In this document: positions 15,018 through 15,488 of the stretch, piece after piece
How the letters are laid out: every line of letters starts with the position of its first letter
Numbering within the stretch: position 1 is the stretch's first letter
The notes under the pieces: model-generated
The model's database searches: none
What the model was told of the DNA's origin: nothing
Seen by the model: the letters and a program-made list of their open reading frames with translations, nothing else
Origin: an uncultured Gammaproteobacteria bacterium
GTDB lineage: Bacteria; Patescibacteriota; Patescibacteriia; UBA1558; 2-01-FULL-52-15
NCBI GenBank assembly: GCA_964402565.1
Contig: CAYOCJ010000002.1
Coordinates: 79,392 to 143,391, forward strand
Direction of reading: 5' to 3'
DNA: 64,000 bases
Position numbers and translations under genes: made by a program

Positions 15018-15047
15018 CCCTGAGCGACCAAAGGGAGTCGAATGGGT
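15018..15047 (+). repeat. 30-bp direct repeat, copy 1 (CCCTGAGCGACCAAAGGGAGTCGAATGGGT).
   Basis: Exact 30/30 identity with 15459-15488; the two copies bracket the 5S rRNA gene. Confidence 0.8.
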
Positions 15048-15221
15048 GGAATTGAAATAAATCTGAAATATATAGGATAGCATTGTATTCAATGTTCATA
15101 CATATCTTACGTAAACTTGCCACTTCGCGCGTAGTCAGACTCGCGCTTGTGCTCGCGGGTATCAGCATCATACTTGGATTAGTCCTGGTACTGACGCCGA
15201 TCTCTGCATAAAAGGGTGGCA

Positions 15222-15345
15222 TTGTTCTGGTGATTCGAGCGAGAGGGCAACACCTGTTCCCATTCCGAACACAGCCGTTAAGCCTCTCAGCGCCCATGGT
15301 AGTACTGGGCTTCGCCTGGTGCGAGAGTAGGTCATCGCCAGAACA
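15222..15345 (+). rRNA. rrf: 5S ribosomal RNA.
   Basis: ...CCCATTCCGAACACAGCCGTTAAGC...GCCCATGGTAGTACTGGG...TGCGAGAGTAGG...; terminal helix TTCTGG/CCAGAA. Confidence 0.8.
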
Positions 15346-15458
15346 ATGCTACTCTTTTTGATTTTTGTCTGCGGAGGCAAACGGAGTGCGACCGGAGCAG
15401 GAACAAAAATCATCCCGAGCGAACGAAGTGAGTCGAGGGATTACTGCTCGGGAAATCA

Positions 15459-15488
15459 CCCTGAGCGACCAAAGGGAGTCGAATGGGT
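15459..15488 (+). repeat. 30-bp direct repeat, copy 2.
   Basis: Identical to 15018-15047. Confidence 0.8.

Follow-up and report, generated by a model that had tools for sequence, protein, structure and literature searches.

In a stretch of 64,000 nucleotides (nt) from an uncultured Gammaproteobacteria bacterium (contig CAYOCJ010000002.1 of assembly GCA_964402565.1, positions 79,392 to 143,391 of the forward strand), hereafter called the window, the 5S ribosomal RNA (rRNA) gene stands between two identical 30-bp sequences in direct orientation. What are these 30-mers, and how did they come to enclose the 5S gene? A preliminary description of the locus proposed a duplication or insertion of the 5S-containing segment, or a repeated processing or termination signal. 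The explanation that we favour with moderate confidence is that both 30-mers, together with a third and more diverged copy, belong to a family of dispersed hairpin units of about 35 nt, which are linked to genes for UPF0213/SLX1-like nucleases of the GIY-YIG type. Copies 1 and 2 would be later additions, and copy 2 would act as a terminator.

Two exact occurrences of CCCTGAGCGACCAAAGGGAGTCGAATGGGT were found in the window, one at 15018-15047 and the other at 15459-15488 of the + strand, and no further match was obtained there even when 3 mismatches were allowed. Copy 1 started 42 nt past the 23S rRNA gene and copy 2 started 116 nt past the 5S rRNA gene, with 411 nt between the copies. The exact 30-bp direct repeats around the 5S gene, with a spacing of about 40 nt, about 115 nt and 411 bp, were therefore confirmed as first described by the Rfam gene ends at 14976 and 15343. 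The identity of the two copies covered 31 nt when the preceding A was included, and the homology ended there. The chance expectation for 30-mer repeats in 64 kb was about 1e-9, and no repeated 30-mer was obtained in 100 dinucleotide-preserving shuffles of the window. Furthermore, the first base of the Logan assembly contig L107 (run SRR12313480) was the first base of copy 2. A break at this point is the expected behaviour of an assembler with k=31 at a repeated 31-mer, which indicates that the repeat is real. The repeat thus accounts for short-read assembly breaks at the rRNA operon.

A third copy, missed in the preliminary description, was found at 15412-15442 (+) and was 71% identical to copies 1 and 2. 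The three copies were scored with R1, a covariance model of the hairpin family that was built here and that combines the invariant core GAGCGA-N-C-NNN-G-N'-GAGTCGA with a complementary flanking stem of 4-5 bp. With filters off, copies 1-3 scored 43-47 bits (E values of about 1e-11 to 1e-12), and the next match in the window scored 14.6 bits. The hairpin unit of copy 1, ACCCTGAGCGACCAAAGGGAGTCGAATGGGT, at 15017-15047 (+) in the 23S-5S spacer, gave 42.8 bits (E=2e-11). The identical unit of copy 2, at 15458-15488 (+) in the 5S trailer, gave 47 bits (E=1e-12), and copy 3, ATCCCGAGCGAACGAAGTGAGTCGAGGGATT, which appears to be an older family member, gave 46.6 bits. In addition, two minimal units of the family type, GTCATCTCGA...GAGAGATC and GTCATTCCGAAGCGAAGCGAGGAATC, formed an inverted pair at 44799-44882, for which R1 gave 14.6 bits (E=0.04) and 13.5 bits (E=0.09). 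This pair lay between two protein genes, which shows that the wider family is not restricted to RNA operons in the source genome. A looser unit with a long middle, GAGCGA-cgaatgcagtgag-GAGTCGA, was matched by a regular expression at 33081-33106 (+) in the tRNA-Lys trailer, and its R1 score was only 10.5 bits (E=0.86).

The paired parts of the unit were supported by covariation. Outer-stem pairs 1-4 were Watson-Crick in 79-93 of 95 distinct copies, with 3-4 pair types at each position, compared with 37-52 for shuffled partners. In the alignment of 70 sequences, 91.1% of the cells were paired against 71.3% in shuffles (0 of 500 shuffles reached the observed value), and slid controls gave 33-47%. 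Moreover, 153 cells showed double changes, compared with 52 in shuffles, and double changes were found in 7 of the 9 Watson-Crick pairs. Covariation was seen for the outer stem and for the inner pairs N7:N13 and C8:G12. The middle occurred as CCGAAGG, GCGAAGC, ACGAAGT, CTGAAAG, GCATAGC or a longer GGGC-loop-GCCC, and the pairing was always kept (inner stems CC/GG, GC/GC, AC/GT, CT/AG and the longer GGGC/GCCC). The GAGCGA and GAGTCGA blocks were invariant and were not Watson-Crick complementary. They could pair as two 5'-GA/5'-GA tandems of the sheared G·A type that enclose G:C and C:G and leave one T bulged (GAGCGA/GAG(T)CGA). Since the proposed G·A pairs cannot covary, we infer their pairing from the invariant blocks, and the sheared form follows the general behaviour of tandem G·A duplexes. 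Accordingly, the plan that best explains the unit comprises a freely covarying outer stem of 4-5 bp, an invariant G·A block, a covarying inner stem of 2-4 bp, and a triloop of the GAA/AAA type. The family consensus has the 5' tail TGTCAT, and copies 1 and 2 carry GAAA and ATCA instead.

At its centre, the unit corresponds to the "mini-hairpin" of the d(GCGAAGC)/CCGAAGG type, a motif covered by a review (PMC13037366). The mini-hairpin is known from the work of Hirao and from the G4 origin and RSF1010 ssiA. Like this DNA motif, most unit centres have the form N-C-GAA-G-N', and GCGAAGC, CCGAAGG and the ACGAAGT of copy 3 possess the two closing pairs and the G-N-A triloop that define a mini-hairpin. 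However, the centre of copies 1 and 2 is CCAAAGG, with an AAA loop whose first base is A and not G. The motif is also embedded here in a larger conserved unit, and no priming or origin function was indicated.

The family was distributed widely. The 20-mer core of copies 1 and 2, GAGCGACCAAAGGGAGTCGA, had 108 exact occurrences in 97 stretches of species-representative genomes. The hosts represented more than 12 phyla and included Acidobacteriota, Bacteroidota, Bacillota, Chloroflexota, Patescibacteria, Omnitrophota, Myxococcota, Bdellovibrionota, Planctomycetota, FCPU426, Vulcanimicrobiota, and uncultured Gammaproteobacteria, and the identical 30-mer was present in one Acidobacteriota metagenome-assembled genome (MAG; L072). 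A degenerate pattern covering copies 1-3 matched 12 sites in 9 viral contigs, all of the form tGTCAT-CCYGAGCGA-N-CGAAG-N'-GAGTCGARGG-ATC. In the 755 kb of fetched loci, R1 gave 229 matches at E<=0.01. The matches were arranged as single units, as many inverted pairs, and as dense arrays whose units alternate in orientation. These dense arrays were found in a chromosome of Kapaibacterium (OZ223198.1), where kilobase-long arrays with about 45 units were located at L089 3363-6354 and at L035 681-1544 and 3460-4677. The copies were mostly intergenic according to a crude open reading frame (ORF) test of the fetched loci. One unit was observed inside an ORF of about 700 aa common to two FCPU426 MAGs (L025 at about 5940 and L087 at about 3914), which could mean that the unit was inserted in frame into a protein gene, or could result from the crude ORF calling.

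The family was not specific for rRNA operons, for a 23S or 5S gene was present in 0 of the 106 motif-bearing loci. A strong tRNA association of solo units was likewise not observed, with 4 of 108 copies near a tRNA. The orientation showed no bias relative to the flanking ORFs (29 same, 29 opposite) or to the local GC skew (49 of 97). A search of 14950-15580 against Rfam 15 at E<=10 returned only the 5S gene and a weak sub-threshold antisense match over it, and the same search of 8 family-rich loci at E<=1 returned no relevant match. With the consensus as the BLAST query, one weak match was obtained in the plasmid collection and none in the phage collection. A literature search found no publication describing the element or containing its sequences. 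The results point to a short, sharply delimited hairpin with nearly base-for-base conservation across distant phyla.

The family was also linked to UPF0213, a widespread family of nucleases without an assigned function. No recurrent neighbour ORF family other than GIY-YIG was found in the 106 loci; the neighbour clustering used ORFs of at least 90 aa and missed shorter or more diverged GIY-YIG ORFs. In the forward test, a local hidden Markov model (HMM) search of the motif-selected loci detected 8 GIY-YIG ORFs in 7 of 97 loci, each 18-115 nt from a strict unit. The chance of such proximity is roughly 5% per locus with one or two units in 8 kb. For the reverse test, five independent GIY-YIG genes were selected solely because their proteins were similar; the sources were Levybacteria, Shapirobacteria, two groundwater lineages, and Chitinophagaceae. 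R1 matches at E<=0.005 were found within about 150 nt upstream of the ATG in four of the five. The fifth had a match at E=0.28, and inspection by eye showed TCCCGAGCGTAGCCGAGGGA 13 nt before its ATG. The Kapaibacterium array held two identical 123-aa GIY-YIG ORFs (L089 4086-4457 and 5222-5593). In a scan of viral sequences for GIY-YIG relatives, only 3 unrelated loci were found, and they had no units.

The linked GIY-YIG genes showed a preference for stable-RNA operons and typically had one or two units in the leader. The usual layout was a tRNA, a unit in the minus orientation, a unit in the plus orientation, and the ATG of a GIY-YIG gene of about 90 aa. The unit nearest the ATG was usually sense-oriented, and the 3' half of the last unit formed GAAGGA or GAGGGA, which resembles a Shine-Dalgarno (SD) sequence. 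The GIY-YIG proteins matched UPF0213 structures (PDB 1ZG2 and 1YWL) and, more weakly, SLX1 structure-specific endonucleases. In a previous study, a recurrent neighbourhood with COG4123 methyltransferases and a possible link to RNA metabolism were reported for prokaryotic SLX1-like stand-alone nucleases (Dunin-Horkawicz et al., PMC1564403), and a methyltransferase gene followed the nuclease gene in L129. A survey from 2024 described GIY-YIG ORFs in insertions in the rRNA genes of the candidate phyla radiation (CPR) that were neither group I nor group II introns (PMC11270868). A search of the literature on YhbQ, on COG2827, and on GIY-YIG genes associated with repeats yielded no description of the element.

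In four independent lineages (L053, L119, L129, and L139), the UPF0213 GIY-YIG gene of about 90 aa was placed directly downstream of tRNA-Gln, which suggests a site-specific insertion preference. In L062 (about 7200-7260) and L053 (about 660-720), a unit was in frame with the GIY-YIG ORF and stood directly before its conserved start, YVYIL. Proteins annotated automatically may for this reason carry N-terminal extensions that are read from the repeat, such as ...LSDQRESKE... and ...PSERSESRE....

The age of the copies was assessed by comparison with one related species, for which L109, L110, and L113 are three assemblies of the same population. The PhoH-PIN protein encoded 4 kb downstream had its next relatives at 63% identity, from a Patescibacteria MAG. 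The order 23S-5S-...-PhoH was kept in L109, L110, and L113. The 5S 3' end, the extended 5S stem, the hairpin that follows it, and the outer part of copy 3 were shared by the relative and the window. In copy 3, the conserved sequence was ATCATCCCGAG...CGAGGGAT; it had the same position in all three assemblies, with a shorter middle in the relative (GACGAAGGA). Copy 2 was absent from the relative, and the 5S trailer of L109 ended in family-like hairpins, after which came runs of T8 and T6. The 23S-5S spacer of the relative was about 150 nt shorter and held no clean copy 1, and the distal stem arm around 15092-15106 was kept in L109. The comparison with a related rRNA operon, which the preliminary description had called for, thus showed that the relative does not carry copies 1 and 2. 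Because the relative lacks these copies but retains the 23S-5S synteny and the copy-3 hairpin, copies 1 and 2 can be taken as lineage-specific additions, while copy 3 would be old and already present in the common ancestor. No units were found after the 5S of L111 (50% identity), and in the more distant PhoH relatives L108, L111, and L112 either the rRNA synteny or the units were missing. When metagenomes were scanned for a 5S-trailer pattern specific to the clade, one match was obtained, from the same population as L110.

According to the explanation favoured here, the units would have colonised non-coding parts of stable-RNA operons in a Patescibacteria-like genome. Copy 3 would have been in the 5S trailer since the common ancestor with the nearest relative, and copies 1 and 2 would be later, still identical additions of one subfamily variant. 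They might have arisen by recent propagation of this variant or by conversion between copies. Copy 1 would occupy a tolerant junction of the 23S processing stem, and copy 2 the operon end, where its hairpin and the U-run most likely end transcription. The nuclease may recognise or mobilise the hairpin, or the hairpin may regulate the nuclease gene. If the link is functional, it would provide a testable substrate for UPF0213 nucleases, suggest how the non-intron GIY-YIG insertions of CPR rRNA genes came about, and serve as a marker by which a mobile element directed at the tRNA and rRNA operons of reduced genomes could be traced. A more specific proposal, which is tentative and less probable than the favoured explanation, is that undescribed mobile cassettes exist which are built around SLX1-like UPF0213 nucleases and home to stable-RNA operons, and that the hairpin serves them as a module for recognition or mobility or as a self-regulating leader. 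The targets of such cassettes would be tRNA-Gln flanks and rRNA spacers, and many solo hairpins would have been left across at least a dozen phyla. If this is true, the UPF0213 family would gain a function, and the double tandem-G·A hairpin would be defined as a new structured motif of nucleic acids.

Several observations weigh against the favoured explanation. No GIY-YIG ORF was found in the 64-kb window by HMM search of the six-frame translation, so the copies in the window are solo units, none of them within about 150 nt of such an ORF. Only about 5% of the family matches adjoined a GIY-YIG gene, and the link could therefore be regulatory or reflect a shared site preference rather than mobilisation. 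No target-site duplication flanked any of the three copies in the window sequence. Only filled sites were found among the fetched loci, and no pair of empty and filled sites that would reveal an insertion footprint. The nearest-neighbour folding energy of the unit was only -9.5 kcal/mol (z=-1.35). Moreover, the relative ages of the copies were concluded from a single related species, and the spacer of this species contained a weak resemblance to copy 1, CTCTGAGAGCGTTCAAAGTAGCACG; it is possible that a copy-1 ancestor has decayed there.

The main rival explanation considers the hairpins as selected RNA-level signals of stable-RNA operons, that is, protein-binding, RNase or terminator sites after the 23S, 5S, and tRNA-Lys genes, with copies 1 and 2 remaining identical through binding of the same factor. 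We regard it as rather unlikely, though it agrees with several observations. All four units in the RNA operons of the window were sense-oriented, and copy 1 fitted a junction of the 23S processing stem. The sense orientation and the SD-like GAAGGA/GAGGGA of the unit nearest the GIY-YIG ATG would also be compatible with a function in RNA. The T-rich tail aatttgtcTTTTTTaaa at 15489-15505 (+) followed copy 2, with T6 at 15497-15502, and the relative had its family-like hairpins and U-runs at the same place. In the fold prediction, the stem of copy 2 was lengthened by pairing of the flanking AAAU and AUUU and was followed by GUC-U6. Copy 2 with its T-run is thus likely to be the terminator of the 23S-5S operon, judging from the predicted fold. 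A consensus terminator scan passed over it because the loop exceeded 8 nt. Like intrinsic (Rho-independent) terminators, copy 2 places a hairpin before T6 at the operon end; unlike them, it has a large non-Watson-Crick interior, and the T-run begins 8 nt past the stem.

A repeated termination signal, as suggested in the preliminary description, remains plausible for copy 2 but not for copies 1 and 3, which have no T-run. The suggestion of a repeated rRNA processing signal was not supported as a general one, since none of the 106 motif-bearing loci carried a gene for 23S or 5S rRNA. Selected RNA-level signals are also disfavoured by the lack of orientation bias relative to ORFs and GC skew, and by the absence of copies 1 and 2 from the closest relative. 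The preliminary statement that a direct repeat is unlike an rRNA processing stem was correct. The true stems were formed by other, long-range inverted repeats, and the copies were rejected as RNase III-type processing stems because they are direct repeats and the complementarity of the 5' and 3' flanks lies in other sequences.

A further alternative is that the units are classical repetitive extragenic palindromic (REP) elements mobilised by a REP-associated tyrosine transposase (RAYT), which is an IS200/IS605-like Y1 transposase. In kind, the family is a small dispersed palindromic repeat like REP and the bacterial interspersed mosaic elements (BIMEs) of Proteobacteria. It shares with them short imperfect hairpins of 30-40 nt, a conserved unpaired 5' tail (tGTCAT), the intergenic location, the occurrence as single units, inverted pairs and alternating arrays, and no strand preference. 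The alternating clusters typical of BIMEs were found in Kapaibacterium (L089 and L035), and inverted pairs in many loci and at 44799-44882 of the window. However, the GT(A/G)G tetranucleotide that stands beside REP palindromes was absent, and the tail was GTCAT. REP sequences are lineage-specific (table in PMC2817692), whereas the core of the present family was identical across phyla. Furthermore, the interior contained G·A tandems and a GNA mini-hairpin in contrast to the plain Watson-Crick palindrome of REP elements, and only GIY-YIG, of the UPF0213 type, recurred as a neighbour in the fetched loci in place of a Y1 transposase, although Y1 transposases were not searched genome-wide. This alternative is consequently improbable. 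The near-identity across phyla, the G·A-tandem architecture, and the link to an SLX1-like nuclease set the family apart, and no description of these features was found in the literature.

It is still less probable that the 411-bp 5S segment was duplicated, inserted or transposed and that the 30-mers are the scars of this event, either as a target-site duplication or as recombination junctions. The direct orientation and the perfect identity of the copies would agree with such an event, and the nested 5S gene in L109 and L113 shows that 5S rearrangement occurs in the clade. Nevertheless, the similarity stopped at 31 nt and the window contained only one 5S gene. The 5S gene and its extended stem were orthologous and at the same place in the relative, which lacks the bracketing copies. 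The same 30-mer was present in an unrelated phylum (L072), and a third copy lay inside the bracket. A duplication of the 5S segment is essentially excluded by these results, and the corresponding suggestion of the preliminary description was a false lead that can be removed at this locus. Finally, in view of the expectation of about 1e-9, the 0 of 100 shuffles, and the independent contig L107 that carries copy 2 and breaks there, a chance match or assembly artefact is practically negligible.

The rearranged 5S gene of the relative deserves a separate description. In L109 at 12700-13045 (-) and in L113 at 1000-1325, that is, in two assemblies, a complete 5S gene was nested in a split older 5S gene. 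The nested gene had its own compensated helix I (TTCTCGTATC/GATGCGAGAA). The split gene had a helix I of the window type, and its parts (about nt 1-36 and about nt 43-120) were about 250 nt apart. The 2024 survey reported no insertion of at least 100 bp in any CPR 5S gene (PMC11270868).

Other known elements were also compared with the unit. Free-standing GIY-YIG homing genes such as T4 Seg, and the CPR rRNA insertions (PMC11270868), are similar in that small ORFs lie between conserved genes or in stable-RNA operons with a patchy, cross-lineage distribution. In contrast to the T4 Seg/I-TevI branch, the present genes belong to the SLX1/UPF0213 branch and are accompanied by a repeated structured hairpin, of which many copies also stand alone. 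Rickettsia palindromic elements and similar repeats are likewise selfish-looking palindromes tolerated in transcribed structured RNA regions, but they measure 100-150 nt compared with about 35 nt here and have another sequence, and the present family occurs in many phyla. A miniature inverted-repeat transposable element, or another insertion with target-site duplication, was rejected because copies 1-3 had no duplicated flank and the unit is a single hairpin of 31-38 nt. Hammerhead or other ribozyme cores, the K-turn, sarcin-ricin/loop E, group II domain V, attC, the bulge-helix-bulge motif, and the CRISPR repeat were also rejected, as the conserved positions did not fit by eye.

The anatomy of the rRNA operon was determined as follows. 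The 23S rRNA gene occupied 11830-14976 (+; Rfam RF02541, 2525 bits), and its length of 3147 nt, compared with the 2925-nt model, implies about 220 nt of insertions. The 5S rRNA gene occupied 15226-15343 (+; RF00001, 85.3 bits). No 16S gene was found in the window, and the 23S-5S pair therefore has no linked 16S here. A candidate sigma-70-type promoter, TTGACA-17-TATAAT, lay at 11343-11371 (+), about 460 nt upstream of the 23S gene; it was recognised only by its 12/12 match to the consensus. The 23S processing stem was bipartite and consisted of the long-range inverted repeats 11810-11838/14966-14994, 11722-11737/15078-15093, and 11660-11674/15092-15106. Its 3' half (14966-15106, +), with arms at 14966-14994, 15063-15093, and 15092-15106, enclosed a GNRA hairpin (14999-15011) and copy 1. 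Co-folding of the leader and the trailer predicted a helix of about 70 bp broken by a multibranch junction, with copy 1 as a side hairpin at this junction.

The extended 5S processing stem was formed by 15210-15234 and 15334-15358, a 25-nt inverted repeat with 88% complementarity. Downstream of the 5S gene, the order was the hairpin at 15359-15412, copy 3, a partial inverted arm, copy 2, and GTC-T6. The first of these, TGATTTTTGT...ACAAAAATCA (15359-15412, +), was an inverted repeat with a small inner hairpin and was kept in L109 and L110. The partial inverted arm GCTCGGGA (15446-15453, +) can pair with TCCCGAGC (15413-15420) of copy 3. The predicted alternative stem of 7-8 bp resembles the inverted-pair layout of family units elsewhere.

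The rRNA operon was flanked by ORFs resembling type IV pilins with an N-terminal methylation motif. The upstream ORF (10554-11315) was recognised by eye from its GFTLIELLVV N-terminus, and the three downstream ORFs (16469-17131, 17135-17674, and 18985-19596) matched Pfam N_methyl.

In the relative, the GIY-YIG gene of L109 lay between tRNAs, and the middle of the unit upstream of it, CGACGAATGAAGTGAGGAGT, was near-identical to that of the window unit at 33081-33106. A tRNA-like fragment, GGGTCGTTAGCTCAG ... TTGGTAGA, was conserved at 32791-32860 of the window and at 1021-1090 of L109. It copied only part of the adjacent tRNA, namely its D-arm and its first 15 nt, and carried an insertion of two small hairpins within the D-loop. 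In the window, the fragment preceded tRNA-Lys with 32 nt between them, and in the relative, the GIY-YIG ORF separated the fragment from the intact tRNA.

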